A DNA stretch of 64,000 nucleotides. It comes from Candidatus Omnitrophota bacterium. Its GTDB lineage: Bacteria > Omnitrophota > Gorgyraeia > Zapsychrales > Zapsychraceae. Both the position numbers and the translations under genes were made by a program. The notes below the pieces were generated by a model, which saw only the letters and a program-made list of their open reading frames with translations, was not told where the DNA came from and did not search any database. The stretch spans positions 553 to 64,552 of the forward strand of contig JAHFGL010000002.1 in assembly GCA_023247445.1 (NCBI GenBank), in the 5' to 3' direction. Shown here piece by piece: positions 3,952-57,228 of the stretch (the first letter of the stretch is position 1; each line of letters starts with the position of its first letter).

Positions 3952-4368
3952 TTAAATGATCAATTCAACACTCTTGAGCTCATTCTTGGCAGGCGCGTAT
4001 AACCGTTTGTCAGACGTGATAAAAACATCCGGTTTGGCCACACACGCGGCAGCCAATTGAATGGCGTCTAAACTTCTTAAGTTGTATCTCTCAATCAATT
4101 CCAACCCTTTTTCCTCAACAGCATCCGCCCAGATGACTTTCTCAAAAAAATTGAAATCCTTGGTTATTTCAGCCCTAAGAAAATTTAATTGCTCCCGGGT
4201 TAAAGTTCTCTCGTAAAGACGTCGATACAAGACAGAATTGATCTCCAGCCAGCAGATGGGGGAGACAATAATATTGGATGTTTGTTCGAGCAAGCGGAGG
4301 AATTTGTCTCTGCCTTCTTCCAATATATATTTTTTAGTCAGGGTTGAGGTGTCAACAAAGGATCGCAT
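3952..4368 (-). CDS. vapC: PIN-domain toxin (VapC-like)
   Basis: FVDTS near the N-terminus and SDKRL near the C-terminus; 138 aa; overlaps the upstream antitoxin gene. Confidence 0.8.
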   Translation of the reverse strand: MRSFVDTSTLTKKYILEEGRDKFLRLLEQTSNIIVSPICWLEINSVLYRRLYERTLTREQLNFLRAEITKDFNFFEKVIWADAVEEKGLELIERYNLRSLDAIQLAAACVAKPDVFITSDKRLYAPAKNELKSVELII

Positions 4369-4601
4369 CAGGCCCTGTTTTCCTCGCGCATGCGAACAAT
4401 CGTTTTCGATAACGCTTCGCCTTTAATCTTAATGGGTTCAATATTTCTTTTCCAGCCAGGCTGAGCGATATTTTCATTGTGAGGGATGAGATCAGCGATG
4501 GGTTTGTTGCGTTCCATGATCACGATGCGCTCGCCCACTTTTACTTTTTTTAGGTAGGACGAAAAGTTATGGGTCAATTCACGTATATTGATAGATACCA
4601 T
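4368..4601 (-). CDS. Phd/YefM-type antitoxin in the VapB position
   Basis: 77 aa, MVSINIRELTHNFSSYLKKVKVGERIVIMERNKPIADLIP. Its stop/start overlaps vapC, and a palindrome ATAACATTATGTTAT sits at its promoter (4628-4645). Confidence 0.75.
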   Translation of the reverse strand: MVSINIRELTHNFSSYLKKVKVGERIVIMERNKPIADLIPHNENIAQPGWKRNIEPIKIKGEALSKTIVRMREENRA

Positions 4602-4999: not shown

Positions 5000-5230
5000 A
5001 CGAAAAGGTAAACCATTCTGCTACGTTCAAGCATTTTTATGTGTGAGCTTCGCAGAAATGCTCCTACGAAGCTCACAAACGAAAGTTTTGGAGCGAAGTA
5101 GAGCATTCGAAAGAATGGGGCACAAAGCTATAGGGCCCGAAAAGGCAGCCTAGCTACCGAAGAAATCAGGTGAACAAAATTCGGATGAACACACAAAGCC
5201 CATTCTTTAAAGAGTGGGTTTTTTTATTTG
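5000..5230 (+). promoter_or_regulatory. conserved 5'-leader element, copy A. It has a CGAAAAGGYAAACC box, a hairpin, the box GAGCGWAGTAG...GGGGCA.AAGCTA.AGG, and an AGCCTRGYTACCGAA box, followed by the terminator-like hairpin AAAGCCCATTCTTTAAAGAGTGGGTTTTTTT
   Basis: Homologous copies lie at 48754-48987 and, rearranged, at 33197-33440. Each is upstream of a giant secreted-protein gene, and each is followed by a U-tract hairpin and then the RBS. Confidence 0.6.
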
Positions 5231-5630: not shown

Positions 5631-8489
5631 TTGAATCCTATCCAGGTGAATCCTTCTGTAGTCGTTAACGTTGATTCTTTTAAAATCTCGGAGAATTCGC
5701 AAAAGCTTATTTTTATTGATAGTAATCTTGGGTTACAGAGTGCCAATATGGATGGCCAATATATTGGTAGTATTAATGATACCGATAAAAGAACTAGTGA
5801 AGCCAAATTTACGCTGGCACAGGATCAAGCTATCTTTAAGTCGCTGAATAATCTTTTTGCCGTTAAATTAGAAGGAGGCGAGAATAAAAGATTGATCAAT
5901 AACCATTCTGGGTATGTTGCAGATTTTAAAATAGTTCCTTCTGATGTGCCTCAAACACCTTTTATGTATTTCTGTCTTAATAATCAAATTTTTAGAGAAC
6001 CATTACGGGAACCGTTTCAAATATTAAATGAGTTACAACTTACACCAAACAGCGAAACAGTCGCGTGCCAATTAGATAATTCTATAAAAGATGGAAACAT
6101 TTATTACATGTCCTTGGACCCTGTCGATGGTAGAGGTAATAATTTATATATGTTTTATGGTCCAGGAAGCAGTTTAATTAATGGCTCAGGAAGAGTTGAA
6201 AAGTTTGCGCTGACTCCTGATCTTTCAAGACTTGTTATGTTGGAAGGAAATTTGGCTGATCCAACTAAATTTGATATTTTAGTTCGCCATGTATCAGGTT
6301 CACCTCAATTTAGGCTCAATGCCGCCGCAACTAATATTGTAGAGAAATTTGATGCGTGGGTTGTTACGCCCGATTCAAAGAGAATAATTTATCAAGACAA
6401 TAATGCCTTATATGTAAGAAATCTCGATGATACAGCCGGAACAACTAAGGTCTTCTTATTAGGGAATCTGGCTAGTGTCGCGCAATACGCAAAGATTGTT
6501 GTAACCGCCGATTCATCCAAGATTATTTACGTTAAAGGGACGACGGCAGGGTATAGTCTTTATGCCAAAGGGTTAGATGGTTCGGCAGAACAAAAAATTA
6601 GTGGAGATATTAATATAGAAGGCAGTATTCTAAATTTTCAGGTTTCTTCGGATTCCAAAAGAGCTGTTTATCGAACAAGTAGAAATGTTCTTTATGCGGC
6701 CGAGATAGATGGAAGTTTTCAAACTAAAATCAACGCAGTTGAACATCCTGATATGAGAATTGCATCTGATTTTAGCATTTCTCCTGATTCTAAAAGGGTT
6801 GCTTATACGTCGTATCTTTTAGCGGTCGGCGGTTTTGGAGAAAATCAAACTTATAAAAAATCCATGCATACGGTGACTATTAATTCAGCTACAGTCACAC
6901 AACCTAATGCAGCCCCAGTTTGGCGTACAGTGCAGAATCAAACCAGTATATTTGGGCAGGGCAGTGTAATTTCTATACCGGTGAGTGATGAGGATTCAAG
7001 ATTATCTATAAATATCACCGCTCGTCACCGTACACGAACTGATTTACCGGCTTTGGATAGGATATATTATACGACTGCGAAGGAGTTTCCTTGGCCTGCA
7101 ACAGCCGAAGTTGGAGTATGGGATGTGACGGCAACGGCTGCAGATGCTGGCGGGTTATCCGCAACATCGAATCCTTTTACAGTTACGGTCATACAGCCCA
7201 ACCGCCCACCGGAATTTACAGATTCTACTCCTATTTCTCGAACGGTAGAGGCTGGGAAACCGATGGCTACCATTATCTTGCCGGTTAGTGATCCAGATGG
7301 AGACATTTTAGAATTTTTGGAATATTCTCCAGTAGGAACGCTCCCATCTAATAATTGCTTATTTCCAATATTTAGTAAATCAGCAACGACGCCGGTTCAA
7401 TACAAAGTTGATTGGACACCATCAACTTTGGCTTGTAATCCTGGGAACTACACCTTTAAGGTTCTCATGAGAGACCCAAGTGGGTTACCTGTGACCTCTC
7501 CAGATATTACAATCACGGTCACACAACCTAATCGTGCACCGGAATTTACAGATTCTACTCCTATTTCTCGAACGGTAGAGGCTGGGAAACCGATGGCTAC
7601 CATTATCTTGCCGGTTAGTGATCCAGATGGGGACATCTTAGAATTTGTGGAATATTCTCCAGTAGGAACGGTCCCGTCTAATAATTGCTTATTCCCAGTA
7701 TCTAGCAAATCAGCAACGACGCCGGTTCAATACAAAGTTGATTGGACACCATCAACTTTGGCTTGTAATCCTGGAAACTACGCCTTTAAGGTTCTTATGA
7801 GAGATCCTGGTGGGTTAAGTGTGGCTTCTCCAACCATTACAGTAACTGTAACTAATCCTCCTAAAACACCCGAGGTGACTATTAATGGAACGCTCGTTAA
7901 TGGAACTAAGTTTACAGCCAGCACAGTGACTGTGAGGGGTAGTTTTATTACCTCTACTAAAGTTGCGACTGGTTTTCAAGGGTTTTCCGACAAAATAACA
8001 GAAGGTAGCCCTGATGGTGCGATTATTAAAAATTGGACAAGCCTTCCAGGAAACGCGTCCCAATTCGTAAATATAGCTATTACTGCATCAGGATTTACTT
8101 CTAATCTTGTTTCGGGTAGTAAAACTTATTATCTTTCCGTCAAAGCGCAGGATCGTATGGGGATTTATAGCAGTGTTGGCTCCGCAGCGTTTAAGGTTGA
8201 CGCCGTTAAGCCAAATGCTCCCCTGATTAATACGTTAAGACCTAGTAGTGTTTCTTCAATAACTGCCCAATGGACAATTCCCACGGATATGCCATCAAAT
8301 GGCTCGGGCATTGCCGGGTATGAGTATGAATTGTATAAAGGGTCAACCAGGGCCATACCTCTTACCTCGATAGGTGTTAATCAAAAAATCTTTACAGGGT
8401 TAAGTCGAGGAGCCTACACCTTGAGAGTACGAGCAATCGATAAGGTAGGTAATGGAAGCGATTTTGTAAGTAGAAGTATAACATTGTAA
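5631..8489 (+). CDS. giant secreted protein with PD40 (TolB-like) beta-propeller repeats, 2x tandem Ig/cadherin-like (He_PIG-like) domains and fibronectin-III-like domains
   Basis: Repeated SPDSKRVAY, TPDSKRIIY and SSDSKRAVY motifs; two ~110-aa near-identical PxFTDSTPISRTVEAGKP...DPDGD modules; a C-terminal FN3-like region. The track start 5631 is an alternative start; the true N-terminus is probably at 5276 with a frameshift. Confidence 0.8.
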   Translation: MNPIQVNPSVVVNVDSFKISENSQKLIFIDSNLGLQSANMDGQYIGSINDTDKRTSEAKFTLAQDQAIFKSLNNLFAVKLEGGENKRLINNHSGYVADFKIVPSDVPQTPFMYFCLNNQIFREPLREPFQILNELQLTPNSETVACQLDNSIKDGNIYYMSLDPVDGRGNNLYMFYGPGSSLINGSGRVEKFALTPDLSRLVMLEGNLADPTKFDILVRHVSGSPQFRLNAAATNIVEKFDAWVVTPDSKRIIYQDNNALYVRNLDDTAGTTKVFLLGNLASVAQYAKIVVTADSSKIIYVKGTTAGYSLYAKGLDGSAEQKISGDINIEGSILNFQVSSDSKRAVYRTSRNVLYAAEIDGSFQTKINAVEHPDMRIASDFSISPDSKRVAYTSYLLAVGGFGENQTYKKSMHTVTINSATVTQPNAAPVWRTVQNQTSIFGQGSVISIPVSDEDSRLSINITARHRTRTDLPALDRIYYTTAKEFPWPATAEVGVWDVTATAADAGGLSATSNPFTVTVIQPNRPPEFTDSTPISRTVEAGKPMATIILPVSDPDGDILEFLEYSPVGTLPSNNCLFPIFSKSATTPVQYKVDWTPSTLACNPGNYTFKVLMRDPSGLPVTSPDITITVTQPNRAPEFTDSTPISRTVEAGKPMATIILPVSDPDGDILEFVEYSPVGTVPSNNCLFPVSSKSATTPVQYKVDWTPSTLACNPGNYAFKVLMRDPGGLSVASPTITVTVTNPPKTPEVTINGTLVNGTKFTASTVTVRGSFITSTKVATGFQGFSDKITEGSPDGAIIKNWTSLPGNASQFVNIAITASGFTSNLVSGSKTYYLSVKAQDRMGIYSSVGSAAFKVDAVKPNAPLINTLRPSSVSSITAQWTIPTDMPSNGSGIAGYEYELYKGSTRAIPLTSIGVNQKIFTGLSRGAYTLRVRAIDKVGNGSDFVSRSITL
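7190..7850 (+). repeat. near-identical tandem duplication (2 x 330 bp) inside the giant gene, encoding two He_PIG-like domains
   Basis: GGAATTTACAGATTCTACTCC... occurs at 7211 and 7541 with about 95% nucleotide identity over ~250 bp. This also duplicates antisense ORFs 7067-7306 and 7448-7708. Confidence 0.85.
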
Positions 8490-26748: not shown

Positions 26749-27765
26749 ATGCCAGAATTACGTAAAGATCCGGTTGTTGGACGTTGGGTGATTATTGCAA
26801 CCGAACGTGCCCGTCGGCCAGGAAATTTTGTCGACACGACCTACATTCGTCCTCAGGGCGGCGCAAAAGATTGTCAGTTTTGCCATCCATCCGAAAAAAT
26901 TATTTACTCAGCCAAGAAATCTGCGAGTTCATCTAACTGGGATGTTTGCGTCACAGATTTTAAAGAATCCTTTTTAAACATGAATGAGCCAATTGCGCAC
27001 AAACGCCATGGTCTTTATGAAGTCGTTAATGGAGTTGGAACACATGAGGTTGTGATCGAGACCAGCACCCACGTTGCAAACATGGCTGATTTAGGTTTGG
27101 AACAGATCCGTCTTATCTTTGAAACCTATGCTGGGCGGATTACGGAGTTAGAAAAAAATCCGCAGCTGCAATATGTTCTTCCCTATAAAAATTATAGTCA
27201 AATGGCGGGTAGTCGCATGATCGGCCACACACGTTCGCATATTATTGCGACCCCGGTTAATCCTGTTCGCGTTAATGAAAAGTTGACGGGCGCCAAAGAA
27301 TATTTTGATACCAAAAAGCGCTGCATTTATTGTGATCTCATCAAACAAGATTTGGAGGAAAAGTCCCGCATTGTCGTTGAAACCGAACATTTCTTAGCGG
27401 TAATTCCTTTTGCCGCTCGATTTCTCTTTGAAACATGGATTTTACCGAAGAAACATCACTGCGATTATGCCAGTGGTGTTAAAGGTGTTGAAGGCGATTT
27501 GGCGCTTATGATGAAAACGTTATTGACCAAATTTAAAGTTGGACTTGATGATCCCGCGTATAACTATGTCATTCACACCGCACCGTTTCGTCGAATGCAG
27601 TTAAATACGAATCGTTGGGCAACGATCGAACAGGATTTTCATTGGCATATGGAGCTCATGCCACAGTTGACCTTAATGGCCGGATTTGAAAAGGGAACTG
27701 GGTTTTATATTTGTGCCGTGCCGCCGGAGCAGATGGCGGAATATTTGAGAGAAATAATAATTTAA
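26749..27765 (+). CDS. GalT-like HIT-family nucleotidyltransferase, paralog 1. The active-site stretch reads HTRSH instead of HxHxQ
   Basis: Zn motif CQFCHPSEK and N-terminal RKDPVVGRWVIIA; the position of the catalytic HxHxQ reads GHTRSHIIATP. Confidence 0.7.
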   Translation: MPELRKDPVVGRWVIIATERARRPGNFVDTTYIRPQGGAKDCQFCHPSEKIIYSAKKSASSSNWDVCVTDFKESFLNMNEPIAHKRHGLYEVVNGVGTHEVVIETSTHVANMADLGLEQIRLIFETYAGRITELEKNPQLQYVLPYKNYSQMAGSRMIGHTRSHIIATPVNPVRVNEKLTGAKEYFDTKKRCIYCDLIKQDLEEKSRIVVETEHFLAVIPFAARFLFETWILPKKHHCDYASGVKGVEGDLALMMKTLLTKFKVGLDDPAYNYVIHTAPFRRMQLNTNRWATIEQDFHWHMELMPQLTLMAGFEKGTGFYICAVPPEQMAEYLREIII

Positions 27766-27910
27766 ATACCAATAAACAAATTCCAAATACCAAACAATAT
27801 ACAAACTTCAATTAACAAATTACAAAAATTTTTTTATGTTTGGAAATTGTGATTTGTTTGTAATTTGGTGCTTAGAATTTGGGATTTTATTTTAGAAAAG
27901 GAAATTATAA
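27766..27910 (+). repeat. bipartite intergenic element: a 72-nt G-free half (AAATTCCAAATACCAAACAATATACAAA...) followed by a C-poor half (GTTTGGAAATTG...TGTAATTTGG...TTTGGGATTTT)
   Basis: Read directly. Homologous to 59020-59197, with a ~90% identical 28-mer and the shared 3' end GTAATTTGG..TTTGGGATTTT. Confidence 0.6.
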
Positions 27911-28915
27911 GTGACCGAATTCAGACGTGATCCTATCGTAGGCCAGTGGACGCTCGTTCACACGAGTAATCCCTTGGGCCCCAAAGATTTTCAAAAAGAA
28001 GAACGATTTGTGCGCGCGCCGGATCTTTGCCAATTTTGTCCGGGCAAAGAACGGATGACACCGTCAGAGGTGGACAGCGTACGTTTAAATGGATCGTTAC
28101 CGAATGCCTTTGGCTGGCAGGTTCGCGTTGTGCCCAATAAATTTCCAGCGCTTAAGATCGAAGGAAATTTGGATGCGCGTCACAGTGGTCTACTAGAATT
28201 ATCCAACGGCATCGGCGCCCACGAGGTTTTGATCGAAACACCAGATCACCACAAACATCTGGCGGATCTTTCCGTCGAAGAAGTTGGGCACGTTATAAAG
28301 AAATATCACAGTCGTTTAGTTGATTTGGCCGGCGATAAGCGCTTTAAATACATTATTATTTTTAAGAATTTTGGCGAGTCAGCGGGCGCTACCGTTGAGC
28401 ACGCGCACAGCCAGATCATTGCGCTTCCCATGGTTCCCAAATATGTTTTGGAAGAACTTGAAGGCGCTCAGCAATATTTCAATGAATGCAAATGCTGCGT
28501 CTTCTGCGACATGATCGAACAGGAATACAAAGACAAAGAACGAATCGTCACTGAGAATGAAGATTTCTTGGTGTTCACTCCGTTTGTACCGCGATACCCT
28601 TTTGAATGTTGGATCATTCCTAAAAAACACACCAGCGAATTTGCCACGATTTCAGAGAGCAGCCAACATCACTTGGCCGCGATTTTGAAAGAAACGCTGC
28701 TACGATTAAAAATTTGTTTATCGAACCCGTCGTACAATTATTATCTGCACATTGCACCCGTTAATTATGAAAAACAAGAAAGTTTTCATTGGCATATTGA
28801 AATCGTGCCGAAGCTCACCAATGTTACCGGTTTTGAATGGGGAACCGGATTTTTTGTCGTTAAAACTCCGCCGCACGTCGCCGCCAAACATCTACGAGAA
28901 GTTTCGCTTTCATAA
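27911..28915 (+). CDS. galT: GalT-like HIT-family nucleotidyltransferase (galactose-1-phosphate uridylyltransferase-like), paralog 2, with canonical HxHxQ
   Basis: CQFCPGKER zinc motif and ATVEHAHSQIIALP (HxHxQ); GTG start. Confidence 0.75.
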   Translation: MTEFRRDPIVGQWTLVHTSNPLGPKDFQKEERFVRAPDLCQFCPGKERMTPSEVDSVRLNGSLPNAFGWQVRVVPNKFPALKIEGNLDARHSGLLELSNGIGAHEVLIETPDHHKHLADLSVEEVGHVIKKYHSRLVDLAGDKRFKYIIIFKNFGESAGATVEHAHSQIIALPMVPKYVLEELEGAQQYFNECKCCVFCDMIEQEYKDKERIVTENEDFLVFTPFVPRYPFECWIIPKKHTSEFATISESSQHHLAAILKETLLRLKICLSNPSYNYYLHIAPVNYEKQESFHWHIEIVPKLTNVTGFEWGTGFFVVKTPPHVAAKHLREVSLS

Positions 28916-29033: not shown

Positions 29034-29552
29034 ATGCGCAGGGTAATTACTAATGAAGGCATTGCCGATCGGATATTTATTATTCGTGGGCAAAGGGTTA
29101 TGGTTGATCGAGATTTAGCAGCGCTCTACGGTGTTTCCACAAAAAGATTGAATGAGCAGGTTAAACGAAACCCCAAACGGTTTCCAGAAGATTTTATGTT
29201 TCAATTAGGTAAAAGTGAGGCGAGTGAACTGGTCGCAAATTGCGACCGGTTCACGAGTTTAAAACACTCTTCAGTTGCCCCATATGTTTTTAGTGAACAA
29301 GGTGTAGCGATGCTATCGAGTGTTTTAAACAGTGAGCGAGCTGTTGTGGTAAATGTGCAAATCATGAGGGCATTTGTTAAGTTGCGCGAATGTATGGTTT
29401 CGCACAAAGATTTACAATATAAGATTGAGACTTTGGAAAGAAAGTTTAAAGATCATGATAATAATTTCAAAGTTGTTTTCGAAGCTATTCGGCAGCTCAT
29501 GGCGCCGCCACCAGAGAAACCAAAAACACCAATTGGATTTCATGTGAAGTGA
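29034..29552 (+). CDS. ORF6N (KilA-N-like) domain DNA-binding protein
   Basis: IRGQRVMVDRDLAALYGVSTKRLNEQVKRNPKRFPEDFMFQL. The start codon abuts a hairpin-U6 (GATCCCCC...GGGGGATTTTTT) that contains the only purine-rich RBS-like stretch. Confidence 0.7.
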   Translation: MRRVITNEGIADRIFIIRGQRVMVDRDLAALYGVSTKRLNEQVKRNPKRFPEDFMFQLGKSEASELVANCDRFTSLKHSSVAPYVFSEQGVAMLSSVLNSERAVVVNVQIMRAFVKLRECMVSHKDLQYKIETLERKFKDHDNNFKVVFEAIRQLMAPPPEKPKTPIGFHVK

Positions 29553-33196: not shown

Positions 33197-33440
33197 TTAT
33201 TAGAAATATTTATCGATCTTTTAATAATTATTTTTGACGAAAAGGCAAATTGTCAGTAATGACAAGACGCAAAACCAAAGGGTCCTTTTAAAGAGGATAG
33301 CCTAGTTACCGAATCAAGATATGAAAAGTTTAGAATACAATATAAACCTATTTTTTAATTATATGAGCTGAGCTTATATTTTTAAGGAGTAGGTTTTTTT
33401 ATTGGCAGGAGGGGCTAATTAGAATCAAAGCATTAAAAAA
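33197..33440 (+). promoter_or_regulatory. conserved 5'-leader element, copy B (rearranged/divergent): CTTAATGTAGTGT, GACGAAAAGGCAAA, GATAGCCTAGTTACCGAATC, then a U-tract hairpin before the RBS
   Basis: Shares the boxes of copies A and C; lies upstream of the NHL giant gene. Confidence 0.5.
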
Positions 33441-37367: not shown

Positions 37368-37526
37368 ATATAGGTAAATATAAAGACACGTACCTTTTTT
37401 CGTTAAGGTATGTGTTTCTATTTAGTTTTCCTACTTAATTCCTCTTGACAACAACGGCGCGTGGTTATATTTTACTTGGGTTTCGTTAGGATCATTCATC
37501 TATCAATTCAATGAGTTTAAATATAA

Positions 37527-46475: not shown

Positions 46476-46490
46476 CCTACGGGAAAGATA

Positions 46491-46541
46491 AAATAGGGAC
46501 ACGTACCTTTTCTAAAAAAGGTACGTGTCCCTATTTTATTA
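46491..46541. terminator. bidirectional perfect hairpin terminator (AATAGGGACACGTACCTTTT / AAAAGGTACGTGTCCCTATT)
   Basis: A 20-bp perfect inverted repeat flanked by A/T runs. A related GACACGTACCTTTT hairpin follows the NHL gene at 37372-37420. Confidence 0.75.
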
Positions 46542-46612: not shown

Positions 46613-47029
46613 ATGTCTGATCATGTAAAAATTGTCAACCAATACAAAAACATCTTAAAATGTTTCTTTATTTTCATATTTAGTGTCATTTTGTATATGG
46701 CGGTTATTGTTACACAGTCAGAAGAAGTGTTTGTTAACTCAGTTTCCTTTTATATGTTTTTTGGCCATTATCTGATTCTGTTATTTTTGATCTTAACCTT
46801 TGCGATTGTCATCACGGCGCGGCTTTACCGTCTTTCTAAATTACTTTATGAAGTTAATCTGATCAGCCTTAAGCCAACCTTTGTGATGTTGGGATATATC
46901 TTGTCTTTTGCTGCACCACTACTCCTAAAACCTCGCATTGCTATTTGCATTCTGCCCGCAACATTTTTATCCTATCTTATGGCCTTCTGGGTGTTGGGAA
47001 ATAAATATTTAAAGATTTTACCTAAATAG
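46613..47029 (+). CDS. small polytopic membrane protein (138 aa); its last ~24 codons form copy 1 of the 72-bp direct repeat
   Basis: Four hydrophobic segments; ends ...FLSYLMAFWVLGNKYLKILPK. Confidence 0.55.
   Translation: MSDHVKIVNQYKNILKCFFIFIFSVILYMAVIVTQSEEVFVNSVSFYMFFGHYLILLFLILTFAIVITARLYRLSKLLYEVNLISLKPTFVMLGYILSFAAPLLLKPRIAICILPATFLSYLMAFWVLGNKYLKILPK
46957..47029 (+). repeat. 72-bp direct repeat, copy 1 (the native 3' end of the membrane-protein gene)
   Basis: CGCAACATTTTTATCCTATCTTATGGCCTTCTGGGTGTTGGGAAATAAATATTTAAAGATTTTACCTAAATAG. Confidence 0.85.
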
Positions 47030-47105
47030 AAGAGAAGAAGTCGGAAAGTATGACTTGATATACTATTTAACTTGTGGCATACTTTGTAAGGAGGAGGGAA
47101 ATAAT

Positions 47106-47372
47106 ATGACTATTACAAAACTAAAAACCAAGAATCAAATTACAATTCCTGCACTAATCGTCAAGCGCCTGGGTATTAAGCCCAATGAACTATTCTCTGT
47201 GGATATAAAGGATAATTACATCATCTTGATGCCTGTTCATATGGAGCCGAAATATAGTGTTGAGGAATTAAATGCCATCGATGGCATTGTTGAAAAAGAG
47301 AAAAAATCAGCTAAAAAATTAAAAGCAGGAGGAGAATTCTCTAGCTATCTTAAAGGATTGGCTAAGAAATGA
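47106..47372 (+). CDS. AbrB/MazE (SpoVT-AbrB fold) antitoxin
   Basis: MTITKLKTKNQITIPALIVKRLGIKPNELFSV, a swapped-hairpin AbrB-type motif; RBS AAGGAGGAGGG; overlaps the toxin gene. Confidence 0.7.
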   Translation: MTITKLKTKNQITIPALIVKRLGIKPNELFSVDIKDNYIILMPVHMEPKYSVEELNAIDGIVEKEKKSAKKLKAGGEFSSYLKGLAKK

Positions 47373-47656
47373 AATACGTTGTCCCGCTATCCTCTTTTGA
47401 AAGATTCTTCAAGAAACTTAATACCAAGGAGCAAGATTTAGTCAGGGATGGTTTATCCAAATTTAATGAATTCTTGGTGTCAGGGCAATTCTCATCTGGG
47501 CTTGGATTTAAGAAGATTAATCATGATAAATACGAATTTCGAATTAATATCCGCTTAAGGGTTATTTTAAAGCTAGAAGGAGATATCTTTTATTTGGTCT
47601 TAGTTGGCAATCATGATGATGTTAGAAAATATTTAAGAAATTATAGGGGAAAATAA
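47369..47656 (+). CDS. RelE/ParE-superfamily toxin
   Basis: 95 aa ending ...YEFRINIRLRVILKLEGDIFYLVLVGNHDDVRKYL. Confidence 0.65.
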   Translation: MKYVVPLSSFERFFKKLNTKEQDLVRDGLSKFNEFLVSGQFSSGLGFKKINHDKYEFRINIRLRVILKLEGDIFYLVLVGNHDDVRKYLRNYRGK

Positions 47657-47692
47657 TACTCCAAGATTCTGCTTAGCTTTTTTCATTCTTTT

Positions 47693-47764
47693 CGCAACAT
47701 TCTTTCCTATCTTATGACCCTCTGGGTATTGGGAAATAAATACCTAAAGACTTTACCTAAATAA
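47693..47764 (+). repeat. 72-bp direct repeat, copy 2 (an orphan in-frame 3' fragment ...LMTLWVLGNKYLKTLPK*)
   Basis: About 88% identical to copy 1; retains an open frame and the stop codon. Confidence 0.85.
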
Positions 47765-47868
47765 TATTAGTTCTTTCATGAATATCCTGAATATAGTTCT
47801 GTGAAAAAGTCTAATTTATGGTATATTTTTAATAAACGTAGATAGTCACCGACAAGGAGTTAAAGACT

Positions 47869-48093
47869 ATGAAGAAGAATATTTCCATGTCTGAAGTCTT
47901 AAAATTGAGTGTGGCCGAGAGAATTCAATTAGTGGAAGATGTTTGGGATAGTATTGCTGCAATTCCTGAGGCCGTACCATTAACGTCAAAAGAAAAAGCA
48001 GCGCTTGACCTTCGGTTAGAGGCTTATCATAAAAATCCTTCGGCAGGTTCTCCCTGGCGAGAAATTAAGAAAAAGATTCTTTCCCAAGCATGA
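47869..48093 (+). CDS. addiction-module antitoxin (TIGR02574-like, pairs with ParE/RelE toxins)
   Basis: LSVAERIQLVEDVWDSIA...LTSKEKAALDLRLEAY motif; RBS AAGGAG. Confidence 0.65.
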   Translation: MKKNISMSEVLKLSVAERIQLVEDVWDSIAAIPEAVPLTSKEKAALDLRLEAYHKNPSAGSPWREIKKKILSQA

Positions 48094-48260
48094 AGTACTC
48101 CGTTGTTATTCGCCCTGAAGCAGAGGCTGATCTACAAAATACCTTCGAGTGGTACGAAGAACAAGAAAAAGGACTTGGGTTAGAAGAGCACAGGATTGTT
48201 GTTCTTGCTGTTTTACATGTAAGACGACATCCAATACGTTGGAAGAAAAGAACACAATAG
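48090..48260 (+). pseudogene. internally deleted ParE/RelE-like toxin remnant (56 aa)
   Basis: MKYSVVIRPEAEADLQNTFEWYEEQEKGLGLE|EHRIVVLAVLHVRRHP. The N-terminal and C-terminal signatures are present but the ~40-aa middle is missing; ATGA overlap with the antitoxin. Confidence 0.55.
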
Positions 48261-48272
48261 TTTTGTTCTCTC

Positions 48273-48340
48273 CGCAACATTTTTATCTTATGGCCTTTTG
48301 GGTATTGGGAAATAAATACCTAAAAACTATCTCAAAATAA
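48273..48340 (+). repeat. 72-bp direct repeat, copy 3 (...FYLMAFWVLGNKYLKTISK*)
   Basis: CGCAACATTTTTATCTTATGGCCTTTTGGGTATTGGGAAATAAATACCTAAAAACTATCTCAAAATAA. Confidence 0.85.
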
Positions 48341-48538
48341 GAGTTTTTTGACGTAAATCCCTGTTTAAGGCAAAAAAGCAAGGGGGAGGGTTGTTTTTAG
48401 TGTAAGCCCATCAATGGTCAAAGTGCTGGCGAAACATCCTGCGCTTCATGGTGGTGCACGGGCTGTTCTTGTTACTCCGGTTGTGAAATTTTCACAATGG
48501 ATGATGAATAAATAACAGTAGATCATAGTAAATCAAAA

Positions 48539-48580
48539 TCAACCCCAGCGCGAAGTTAGCTCTGGGGTTGATTTTTTTTA
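48539..48580 (+). terminator. rho-independent terminator (CAACCCCAGCGCGAAGTTAGCTCTGGGGTTG + T8)
   Basis: Read directly. Confidence 0.75.
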
Positions 48581-48753: not shown

Positions 48754-48986
48754 AACGACAAAGGCAAACCTATCGTAAGGTAGGGACCCCTACTTCGCCA
48801 AATACTTAATGTGTTTGGCTTCGTAGGGCTCTACGAAACTCAATGCGAAAGCAATTGAGCGTAGTAGGGGCAAAGCTAAGGATCCCAATGAGGACAGCCT
48901 GGTTACCGAATCTAAAATCTAGTAGTTTGTTTAAAACCTATCTTTCCGTAGGGAGGGATGGGTTTTCTTTTTTTATAGGAGGTCAA
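48754..48986 (+). promoter_or_regulatory. conserved 5'-leader element, copy C
   Basis: The boxes CGACAAAGGCAAACC, CTTAATGTGTTTGGCTTCGTAGGGCTCTACGAAACTCA, GAGCGTAGTAGGGGCAAAGCTAAGG and AGCCTGGTTACCGAATC are collinear with copy A. The track ORF 48843 runs through it in frame, but the real start with signal peptide is ATG 48987. Confidence 0.6.
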
Positions 48987-55121: not shown

Positions 55122-56819
55122 ATGGCCATCAAAACAAAATTTCCTATCGGTCAGCTTCTCATCGAGAAGAAGATCATTACCCCCGAACAATTAGAGATAG
55201 CGCTTAAGAAACAAAAAGAAACCAACGAGCCGCTGGGCGTAACCCTCATTAAATTAGGTTTTATTGAAGAAGAAACGATTTTTTTGCCCGTTTTAGCCGG
55301 ACAAATGGGTGTTGATTATGTGAATTTGAAAGATATTGAAATCCCTCCCGAGGTCTTAAGCAAAATTCCCGCCAAGTTTGCCAGTCATTATAAAATTATG
55401 CCGTTTGCCTTTAGGAGTAATACGATTTCGATTGCAACGGCCGTTCCCATCGACATTCATCTGCTGGATGAAATTGGATTGGTTGTTAATTATCCACTGC
55501 AATCTGTTTTAGCGAGCGAAAAAGATATATTGGAAGCCATCCGAAAATATTATGGAGTTGGGGCGGAGACGATTGAAAAAATGATGGGCTCGGTGCAGAA
55601 GTCGAATCAACAGGAAACAGAAATTGCGGAGATTGACGAAACAGGTTCCGAGGCCTCGATTAGCAAATTTTTAAATCAAATTCTTCTGCAGGCTTATCGT
55701 GATCGCGCCAGTGATATCCATATTGAACCCTTTGAAGATAATTTGCAAATTCGTTATCGAGTTGATGGCATCCTTTATGATGCCAAAGTTCCTCCTAACA
55801 TTAAACATTTTAAAGATGAAATTAATTCTCGGATTAAAATCTTATCAAATCTTAACATCGCCGAGAAACGGTTGCCTCAGGACGGCCGTTTTAAAGTACG
55901 AGTTAAGGATGTTGATATTGATCTTCGCGTTTCATTTTTGCCAACGCCGTATGGAGAGAGTGTTGTCTTACGCGTTTTGAATTCGACCCGCTTATTTAGT
56001 TTTGAAGAATTAGGACTGATCGATTATGAACGCAAAATTCTTGAAGAGTTAGTTAAGAAGCCTCACGGAATTATTTTTTTAACCGGGCCAACCGGAAGTG
56101 GAAAGACAACGACACTTTATTCGTGTCTTTCTCAAGTGAACACAGAAGATAGAAAAATTATCACAATTGAAGATCCGATTGAATATCAACTTAAAGGCAT
56201 TACGCAAATTCAAACTAATCCCAGAATTGGATTAACCTTTGCCCATGGACTACGTTCGATGCTTCGTCATGATCCTGATATTATGATGGTCGGAGAAGTT
56301 CGGGATCGTGAAACAGCGGAAATTGCGATTCAAGTGGCTTTAACTGGGCATTTAATTTTTTCAACACTGCATACCAATGACGCGGCCAGCGGCGTTACGC
56401 GTTTGCTCGATATGGGGGTTGAGCCATTTCTGGTGACGAGCACCATCGAATGTTTTATTGCTCAACGATTGATCCGCATGTTGTGTTCGAAATGTAAACA
56501 GCCAACGAAATTAAATGATCAGCTTCTTAAAGATTTTGAAGGTCAGGTTGAAATTCCTAAAGATATGACGATTTATGAAGGCAAAGGTTGCGAGTCCTGT
56601 AAAATGACCGGTTATATTGGTCGAGAAGCCATTTATGAGTTTTTGCTAATGACAGAACCGATTCGACAACTGATTATGCAACGCGCGACCGTTAATCAGA
56701 TTAAAGAAAAAGCGATCGAGCAAGGAATGAAAACACTGCGGCAGTCGGGATGGGATAAGGTTGTGCATGGATTAACGACGCCGGAAGAAGTTGTCAGGGT
56801 CACTAAAGAAGAAACTTAG
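55122..56819 (+). CDS. gspE: type II secretion / type IV pilus assembly ATPase (GspE/PilB family) with N-terminal T2SSE_N domain
   Basis: Walker A GPTGSGKTTT, the Asp box, Walker B, and the Cys4 cluster CSKCKQ...CESCKMTG. Confidence 0.9.
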   Translation: MAIKTKFPIGQLLIEKKIITPEQLEIALKKQKETNEPLGVTLIKLGFIEEETIFLPVLAGQMGVDYVNLKDIEIPPEVLSKIPAKFASHYKIMPFAFRSNTISIATAVPIDIHLLDEIGLVVNYPLQSVLASEKDILEAIRKYYGVGAETIEKMMGSVQKSNQQETEIAEIDETGSEASISKFLNQILLQAYRDRASDIHIEPFEDNLQIRYRVDGILYDAKVPPNIKHFKDEINSRIKILSNLNIAEKRLPQDGRFKVRVKDVDIDLRVSFLPTPYGESVVLRVLNSTRLFSFEELGLIDYERKILEELVKKPHGIIFLTGPTGSGKTTTLYSCLSQVNTEDRKIITIEDPIEYQLKGITQIQTNPRIGLTFAHGLRSMLRHDPDIMMVGEVRDRETAEIAIQVALTGHLIFSTLHTNDAASGVTRLLDMGVEPFLVTSTIECFIAQRLIRMLCSKCKQPTKLNDQLLKDFEGQVEIPKDMTIYEGKGCESCKMTGYIGREAIYEFLLMTEPIRQLIMQRATVNQIKEKAIEQGMKTLRQSGWDKVVHGLTTPEEVVRVTKEET

Positions 56820-56868
56820 TAATCGTATTTCGTATTTAGTACATCGTACTTCGCTGAGGATTGATGAG

Positions 56869-57228
56869 ATGGAGAAGATTAAAAATTTTAAAGAATTGAG
56901 GATATGGCAGAAAGGGATAGAAATTGTTAAAGATGTTTATTCGATGACCAAAGATTTTCCCAAAGAAGAATTGTATGGTTTAACAAGTCAAATGAGACGC
57001 TCTGCAATTTCAATACCATCTAATATTGCCGAAGGATTTAAAAGATTTCATGATAAAGAGTATAAGCAGTTTTTGCATATCACTTTAGGATCTGCTGCTG
57101 AATTAGAAACACAGATTATTATCTCTAAGGAACTTAATTTTATAGACCAAGAGAAGTTAGATAACATTCTAGAAAAATTAGATCATTTGGCCAAAATGAT
57201 TTCTTCTCTTTTAAATAAAATACAATAA
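56869..57228 (+). CDS. four-helix-bundle protein (23S rRNA intervening-sequence protein family, TIGR02436-like)
   Basis: MEKIKNFKELRIWQKGIEIVKDVY...ELYGLTSQMRRSAISIPSNIAEGF...GSAAELETQ, the canonical 4HB signature; ~119 aa from ATG 56869. Confidence 0.8.
   Translation: MEKIKNFKELRIWQKGIEIVKDVYSMTKDFPKEELYGLTSQMRRSAISIPSNIAEGFKRFHDKEYKQFLHITLGSAAELETQIIISKELNFIDQEKLDNILEKLDHLAKMISSLLNKIQ

Follow-up and report, generated by a model that had tools for sequence, protein, structure and literature searches.

The 64,000-nt stretch of the Candidatus Omnitrophota contig JAHFGL010000002.1 analysed here (referred to as the window) carries, on its forward strand, a small membrane-protein gene that is followed by two toxin-antitoxin (TA) modules, each of which runs directly into a further copy of the 3' end of that gene. 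An earlier note on this DNA had read the arrangement as serial insertion into one gene end, with reconstitution of the target at each step, and had likened it to the cassette arrays of integrons. Our analysis supports serial insertion with rebuilding of the gene end, as the modules are unrelated, lie at the same point and are each followed by the repeat, and as a syntenic relative has no TA genes at this position. The integron analogy had to be abandoned.

The membrane-protein gene (46613..47029, forward strand) is intact and encodes 138 amino acids with approximately four hydrophobic segments. No Pfam or NCBIfam family was matched by its product, and a word-indexed protein search returned only the query itself. 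Exhaustive HMMER searching yielded seven small homologues (31-47% identity) and one weaker match to a 588-aa protein, while a profile search added one further homologue, P0017. Alignments of this family revealed a conserved C-terminal motif, YL..FW(V/I)L.NK.L, which is the part encoded by the repeat. Because the family keeps the same C-terminal motif, the copy attached to the gene is its native end, as previously proposed, and not merely an end supplied by the repeat. This copy completes the intact 138-aa open reading frame (ORF) with the family C-terminus, and the two others are orphan ends. Protein P0014 (195 aa), the database entry from the homologous locus L011 (176-763), results from reading a TGA as tryptophan; under genetic code table 11 the gene ends 12 codons past the conserved motif (...KYLKQDMS and stop). 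The long C-terminal extension of P0014 is thus a gene-calling artefact, since table 11 stops the gene at TGA.

A repeat finder located three direct copies of the gene end (46965-47028, 47700-47763 and 48276-48339), and a degenerate 35-nt core was found at exactly three sites within the window and in none of 100 shuffles. The copies are real, and none of them would be expected by chance. Gapped alignment extended the copies to the left: copy 1 (46921..47029, covering ~108 bp up to and including the TAG of the gene) and copy 2 (47657..47764, an orphan end of ~108 bp) are 80% identical, whereas copy 3 (48261..48340), also an orphan end, is shorter (~80 bp); all three lie on the forward strand. 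The repeats are therefore longer than the ~72 bp first given, and the accompanying identity of 85-90% was slightly overstated: inside the 72-bp segments we obtained 87.7% (copies 1 and 2), 78.1% (1 and 3) and 83.3% (2 and 3), or 84-89% when gap columns are dropped.

The right edge of every copy is a stop codon (TAG in copy 1, TAA in copies 2 and 3), and past these codons the flanks resemble each other no more than shuffled controls do (p 0.15-0.8). At the other side, copies 2 and 3 follow the stop codons of the first and the second toxin gene, respectively, without a single intervening base, so that no spare DNA remains between module and repeat. The statement that the orphans stay in frame up to their own stop codons proved valid for the last 18 codons (YLMTLWVLGNKYLKTLPK in copy 2 and YLMAFWVLGNKYLKTISK in copy 3, each followed by the stop), but not upstream of them, where copy 2 has lost 1 nt and copy 3 has lost 5 nt, which breaks the frame. 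Within the last 57 nt, the private changes of copy 1 comprise four that are synonymous or affect the stop and one replacement, and both private changes of copy 2 are replacements. Such a substitution pattern would fit a selected gene end beside drifting orphans, and it would equally fit the origin of copy 1 from a different functional allele.

The DNA between the copies consists of TA genes only, divided into cassette 1 (47030-47656, 627 bp) and cassette 2 (47765-48260, 496 bp), in agreement with the previous estimate of ~500-660 bp. Cassette 1 opens with a promoter/operator region (47030..47105, +) containing a -35 box TTGATA, a TG-extended -10 box CATACT and the flanking inverted motifs AAGTATG/CATACTT, and this region is conserved with modules of the same family (TA1) on other contigs. 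It is followed by an AbrB/MazE-type antitoxin gene (47106..47372, +; 88 aa, PF04014 and TIGR01439) and a 95-aa toxin gene (47369..47656, +), which overlap by ATGA (47369-47372). Toxin 1 gave no Pfam match, nor any match by sequence, profile included, to PDB entries. Its AlphaFold model (predicted local distance difference test score 88) adopts a RelE/YafQ/YoeB fold, with HP0892, RelE, YafQ and YoeB as top Foldseek matches. More than 220 relatives share 55-67% identity with it; those with a named source all come from Candidatus Omnitrophota/Omnitrophica, and some are labelled RelE. With the gene overlap, a DNA-binding antitoxin and a toxin of predicted known fold, cassette 1 can be regarded as a type II TA module.

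Cassette 2 begins with an AT-rich leader (47765..47868, +) in which a plausible extended -10 box, TGGTATATT, can be read, although the leader was not flagged by a consensus promoter scan. The antitoxin gene (47869..48093, +; 74 aa, TIGR02574/PF09720) is intact, and its product shares 50% identity with its counterpart in an annotated TA pair from Anabaena plasmid pANACY.01. The adjoining RelE/ParE-family toxin gene (48090..48260, +) is a remnant of 56 codons that retains its native termini and stop. Alignment with the 99-aa RelE/ParE toxin of the pANACY.01 pair places its first 31 residues at positions 1-31 and its last 25 at approximately 75-99, i.e. about 43 core residues were lost in frame; a sequence search of the remnant against PDB returned nothing. 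Judged by this alignment, toxin 2 appears to be inactivated by an internal deletion, and cassette 2 lacks an intact toxin. Taken together, the domain matches, the fold search and the toxin alignment bear out the identification of the pairs in the earlier note (AbrB with a RelE-like toxin, TIGR02574 with a decayed ParE-like toxin).

As the two TA modules are unrelated, simple tandem duplication is ruled out as the origin of the array, and the modules must have entered separately. Both were placed, to the base, at the same point behind a copy of the gene end, and another copy follows each of them directly; this, together with the lack of spare DNA in either module, indicates a fixed insertion point. 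The base-precise positions also disfavour two explanations by deletion. The first holds that the array is what remains of three full paralogous membrane genes separated by TA modules, with deletions that left only the last 80-108 bp of the second and third genes. The region is indeed decaying, as illustrated by the internal deletion in toxin 2 and by the orphan end of another gene, of the CFI-box-CTERM type, right after copy 3. However, two independent deletions would have had to begin exactly at the toxin stops and to spare only the extreme 3' ends, no trace of the upstream part of the membrane gene exists elsewhere in the window, and the syntenic relative has a single copy. We consider this explanation very improbable.

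According to the second, the modules are the remains of two larger, integrase-bearing elements (islands or prophages) which had integrated at the gene's 3' end, each bringing a replacement end, and from which deletions spared only the TA modules. Direct repeats that rebuild the 3' end of a protein gene are the signature of such elements, and TA modules resist loss. Moreover, one membrane-family member (locus L012, 10-3768) lies directly downstream of the C-terminus of a C5 cytosine methyltransferase, an ORF of 144 aa and a tyrosine recombinase of 640 aa. That recombinase, however, is located upstream of the gene and not behind its 3' end. At the locus studied here only 0-9 nt per side separate the modules from the repeats and the native toxin stops are kept, an exactness that random deletion would not produce twice, and no fragment of an integrase pseudogene is present between the repeats. 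This origin is improbable as well, if somewhat less so than that from paralogous genes.

The integron analogy was examined at the level of the repeats. A cassette array of the integron type that has no integrase close by (CALIN), with the repeats as attC sites, would account for compact, promoter-bearing TA cassettes lying between repeats of 80-88% identity, as they do in chromosomal integron arrays, and in copy 1 the sequence GCAAC ... GTTGGGA loosely resembles R''/R' boxes. The folding test proposed for an attC-like bottom strand nevertheless gave no such structure: in single-stranded form, neither strand of any of the three copies folds better than shuffled sequences (z -0.76 to +1.63; between 51 and 192 of 200 shuffles reached an equally good fold). 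The putative R' box (GTTRRRY) is GTTGGGA in copy 1 only and reads ATTGGGA in copies 2 and 3. Without a hairpin fold and without a conserved GTTRRRY box, the repeats are not attC sites; they are direct, coding-derived and terminated by stop codons, and no IntI-like gene exists in the window. An integron origin is thus scarcely credible.

A diversity-generating retroelement was also considered and rejected. A gene at 56791-57228 separates gspE from gspF in a type II secretion operon, shares 29 nt with the end of gspE and encodes a four-helix bundle with a weak bAvd-like match. It is a 23S-rRNA-intervening-sequence protein, and the 412-aa product of the neighbouring gene is GspF rather than a reverse transcriptase. 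In addition, the differences between the repeat copies are mostly transitions and are not adenine-specific.

The domain scan covered 46 ORFs of the window, 41 of them of at least 90 aa. It detected no recombinase or transposase domain and no Phage_integrase match, in line with the earlier note, which saw no integrase in the window. Among these ORFs there is no recombinase gene in the 46 kb before the locus or in the 15 kb behind it. Since neither the cassettes nor the remainder of the 64 kb encodes a recombinase, the enzyme responsible for the insertions must act in trans or be part of the host recombination machinery.

The nearest thing to an empty site was found in a distant syntenic relative, available as a gene table only. 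In this relative, a GalT-like gene, GAPDH and one gene for a large secreted protein precede the membrane gene. Behind it come a gap of 238 bp, genes for two large secreted proteins and GspE of the type II secretion system, and there is no TA module. Closer sequences are scarce: all the proteins of the locus that were tested, GAPDH included, are singletons at 90% identity clustering. Four contigs carry the gene, one of them known only through a collapse note. None departs from the arrangement of the window over the length that it covers, and the one for which DNA was available is base-identical to the window. A scan of representative genomes (a collection that does not contain the source genome) with TGGGTRTTGGGAAATAAATA gave six matches, of which the flanks of three were read and are unlike the repeat; all six are taken to be unrelated. 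A codon-degenerate 36-nt pattern had no match in Joint Genome Institute (JGI) metagenomes and viral contigs.

TA1 modules also occur independently of this locus. From promoter to stop, cassette 1 is 65-79% identical to modules in L013, L021, L022 and L033, which are situated in unrelated contexts. The homology starts at 47033-47038, i.e. 4-9 nt after the membrane-gene stop and with the promoter boxes included, and ends at ~47646, within ~10-12 nt of the toxin stop codon. In L021 (3558-4538) and L033 (2060-3038) a unit of 982 bp is 94.7% identical between the two contigs, whereas its flanks are unrelated. The TA1 family therefore moves as an element of ~1 kb that encodes no recombinase. The unit contains a hairpin, the promoter, the AbrB antitoxin gene, the RelE-fold toxin gene and a second palindrome, and it is bordered by direct repeats of 46 nt; the right-hand palindrome appears again at L021 6848-6874.

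In L022, the TA1-family module is flanked by direct repeats of ~100 nt (207-308 and 985-1087), the sequence of which is unrelated to the repeat in the window. A third, shorter and right-aligned copy (1936-1962) lies behind the next gene, which encodes a PAS-domain protein, and together with an inverted copy (1846-1867) it forms a hairpin of ~112 nt (z -2.9 and -3.8). The L022 copies end in TTGACAAATTAACAACGT, a motif which is absent from the window. The arrangement is also present in L023-L029, and several long contigs break just upstream. This repeat could be the end of a transposon, namely a miniature inverted-repeat transposable element (MITE) or an insertion sequence (IS), or else a cassette boundary. 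A second TA pair present in L022 was tried as a relative of cassette 2 and turned out not to be related to it.

The most serious competing explanation is insertion in situ with a long target duplication, in which the ends of linear TA DNA would be joined to breaks with a stagger of 80-108 bp, or at staggered positions to two sister chromosomes, and gap filling would duplicate the stretch between the joints, as has been proposed for restriction-modification gene complexes; neither an att site nor a dedicated recombinase is then required. The locus has much of what this predicts: a selfish addiction module, direct repeats of more than 30 bp and of varying length, no mobility gene, and repeats that are unique in 64 kb, in agreement with the criteria of Furuta et al. 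(2010). The long and unrelated repeats around other TA1-family modules (~100 nt in L022, 46 nt in L021/L033) point the same way, and the three copies have diverged in a star-like, interleaved manner, as suits sequences that were once identical. On the other hand, two independent events would need an identical right-hand joint, at the base after the stop codon. The private changes of copy 1 are mostly synonymous and exceed the number expected if it were merely as old as the orphans (although the numbers are small). Finally, the flanks in L021/L033 travel with the unit and are not derived from the target, so they do not demonstrate target duplication. On balance, this explanation is possible but rather unlikely.

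We suggest instead that the two TA modules entered serially at one point through recombination of the gene end with a copy borne on the cassette, by a route that is not that of integrons, and we assign this reading a probability of about 0.4. Copies 1 and 2 share ~108 bp and copy 3 only ~80 bp, with a common right edge; cassettes carrying different lengths of target homology would produce such unequal left edges. The compactness of the cassettes and the mostly synonymous private changes of copy 1 (4/5) fit the same route. We rank recombination with a cassette-borne gene end slightly ahead of duplication in situ, although the data cannot separate the two.

From the observed anatomy and boundaries of the locus we infer the following order of events. 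Two autonomous, promoter-bearing type II TA modules would have entered in turn at the base after the membrane-gene stop. With each entry the last 80-108 bp of the gene would have been duplicated beyond the module, and the gene would have kept a complete 3' end throughout. Most likely, the gene's 3' end recombined with its own copy on a small circle composed of gene end, promoter, antitoxin and toxin, by an att-like event or a Campbell-type single crossover. A recombinase with its gene outside the window, or else host homologous recombination, would have catalysed this step. Toxin addiction may then have held the modules in place. The older, distal module would subsequently have lost the core of its toxin by the in-frame deletion, and the two orphan gene ends would be decaying through frameshifts and non-synonymous changes.

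Several observations weigh against this proposal. No recombinase has been identified, and among the contigs with the gene there is neither an excised or empty form nor a strain with other cassette content. Further copies of the repeat are present neither in the window nor in the scanned collections. The empty site is known from a gene table without DNA, in a relative at 31% protein identity. Other TA1-family loci have different flanking repeats or none, which shows that the repeat does not belong to the TA family as such. The private differences among the three copies are interleaved and not arranged in blocks, so that no crossover point is visible, and at their present identity of 80-88% the copies are too diverged for efficient homologous recombination.

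The sole candidate for a core site is an 11-8-11 inverted repeat (TTTTGGGTATT-GGGAAATA-AATACCTAAAA) within the most conserved part of the repeat. Its arms match at 10/11 positions in copy 3 (48295-48324, p 0.007) and at 9/11 in copy 2 (47719-47748, p 0.07), and it is degenerate in the gene-attached copy 1, which also counts against the proposal. Shaped like the core site of a tyrosine recombinase, this element could be a relic of such a site, or it could be a product of chance.

Insertion with long target duplication has been documented for restriction-modification gene complexes (Nobusato et al. 2000, Gene 259:99; Furuta, Abe & Kobayashi 2010, Nucleic Acids Research 38:2428, PMC2853133). In the published cases the repeat sometimes overlaps the 3' end of a gene, and the repeats are 94-100% identical (Nobusato 2000; Furuta 2010, PMC2853133). 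These studies consider inserts of less than 20 kb between direct repeats of more than 30 bp, without mobility genes, with a repeat that is not multicopy and that is present a single time at the empty site of a compared genome. Here the inserts measure 627 and 496 bp and the repeats ~108 and ~80 bp, mobility genes are absent from the window, and the repeat is not multicopy in the collections scanned. The resemblance thus consists in a small addiction module and in target-derived direct repeats of tens to hundreds of bp, varying in length, with no transposase or integrase; in our case the repeats are also unique in 64 kb. In contrast to the restriction-modification systems, the cargo is a TA pair, two different modules are stacked at the same point with one shared repeat boundary, the repeats are old (80-88%), and the target duplication is presumptive.

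In terms of rebuilding a gene end, the locus resembles elements that integrate into protein genes. The element e14 and phage 21 both integrate at the 3' end of the Escherichia coli icd gene and supply an alternative 3' end, and islands that target tRNA genes are comparable. The displaced end of icd is left as an orphan at the far side, and the differences between the two ends are largely synonymous. Elements of this type are kilobases long and carry their own integrase next to the att site. As in icd, the direct repeats described here hold the 3' end of the target gene and the gene is intact; unlike e14 and phage 21, the inserts are 0.5-0.6 kb of TA genes with no recombinase of their own. We regard the restriction-modification long target duplications as the closest published analogue, and e14 and phage 21 at icd as the closest functional analogue for the rebuilding of the 3' end.

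The TA cassettes of sedentary chromosomal integrons and CALINs are likewise small, promoter-bearing and placed in series between similar repeats, and they may stabilise the array. The repeats of the Omnitrophota locus differ from theirs in being non-palindromic, unfolded and coding-derived, and attI and intI are missing. As TA systems, the modules are similar to the RelBE/ParDE-type type II pairs in their ATGA gene overlap, their AbrB/MazE and TIGR02574 antitoxins and their RelE-superfamily toxin folds, but the family of toxin 1 has no Pfam model and toxin 2 has been inactivated, as it seems, by deletion. What is new is not the mode of entry itself, which is known for restriction-modification systems, but the occurrence of bare TA modules in place of restriction-modification genes, the stacking of two of them at one point, and the setting in a lineage known from metagenomes only.

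A bolder idea is that poorly sampled bacteria, probably Candidatus Omnitrophota, possess a cassette-capture system that is not of the integron type. It would take up minimal modules with their own promoter, for instance TA pairs, serially at a defined point just past the stop codon of a gene, by means of a trans-acting recombinase whose site lies in the last ~80 bp (perhaps the 11-8-11 inverted repeat), and each capture would rebuild the gene end. The right-aligned repeat array around the TA1-family module of L022 could be a second instance of such capture. We consider the existence of this system improbable.

The locus is delimited on the left by a hairpin with perfect 24-bp arms (46488..46539), a bidirectional terminator that closes the upstream M11-peptidase gene. 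A copy with 77-81% similarity follows a 1308-aa gene at 37372-37423, and the pair may represent a recurring terminator or an element like a repetitive extragenic palindromic (REP) sequence. On the right, copy 3 is directly followed by the orphan 3' end of a CFI-box-CTERM gene (48369..48515, +; ~48 codons and a stop), recognized by tblastn against the tails of two relatives (E 0.002-0.004) and by NCBIfam NF041770 (E 0.054), and then by a hairpin with a T run (48535..48575, +), a terminator which forms the right limit of the locus. The remnant is the third orphan gene end in a row and probably the leftover of a deleted neighbouring gene for a secreted protein. The neighbourhood has thus been eroded, because in the relatives L008 and L011 a CFI-box-CTERM gene adjoins the membrane-family gene.

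Members of the membrane family lie 5-110 bp downstream of another gene in L008 (159-2554), L009 (2-2403) and L011 (3-652). In L008 and L011 this upstream gene encodes a CFI-box-CTERM protein; in L009 it encodes a large, unscanned protein. The family might be a sorting or anchoring partner of the CFI-box-CTERM signal, on which we found no literature. In L010, a PIN toxin gene ends 24 bp before another homologue; together with the neighbours seen in L012, this indicates that the membrane family often borders mobile or selfish DNA.

Elsewhere in the window, c-di-GMP-I riboswitches scored above threshold at 5087-5161 and 33234-33313, and a sub-threshold aptamer resembling c-di-GMP-I-GGC spans 48754-48911 (158 nt versus 80 positions in the model). 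Each of the three sites is located upstream of a gene for a very large secreted or surface protein, and L011 shows the same layout. No tRNA gene was found in the window. A further TA locus is represented by a PIN-domain (VapC-type) toxin gene on the reverse strand (3952-4368). A gene for a 952-aa surface protein contains an internal tandem repeat of 300 nt with 90% identity (7152-7781), and two paralogous galactose-1-phosphate uridylyltransferase-like genes are adjacent at 26749-28915. The window also has an ORF6N gene (29034-29552). In L013, an ORF6N-domain gene lies between 49-nt direct repeats of 98% identity (4370-4418 and 5072-5120), which are terminator-like hairpins themselves. In L015, no ORF6N gene was called between the same repeats, even though their spacing is 779 nt compared to 702 nt in L013.

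The movement of chromosomal TA modules that are not accompanied by a transposase or an integrase is still poorly understood. The locus described here, in a phylum known almost only from metagenomes, extends to TA systems an entry mode that has been documented mainly for restriction-modification genes. To judge from its sequence, it appears to be a clean case on TA-module movement, with no sign of present activity. If it is true that variants among reads or strains show cassettes coming and going, the locus would constitute a compact model for cassette capture that is driven by homology or by a recombinase acting in trans; otherwise, it would be a tidy fossil of two old insertions.

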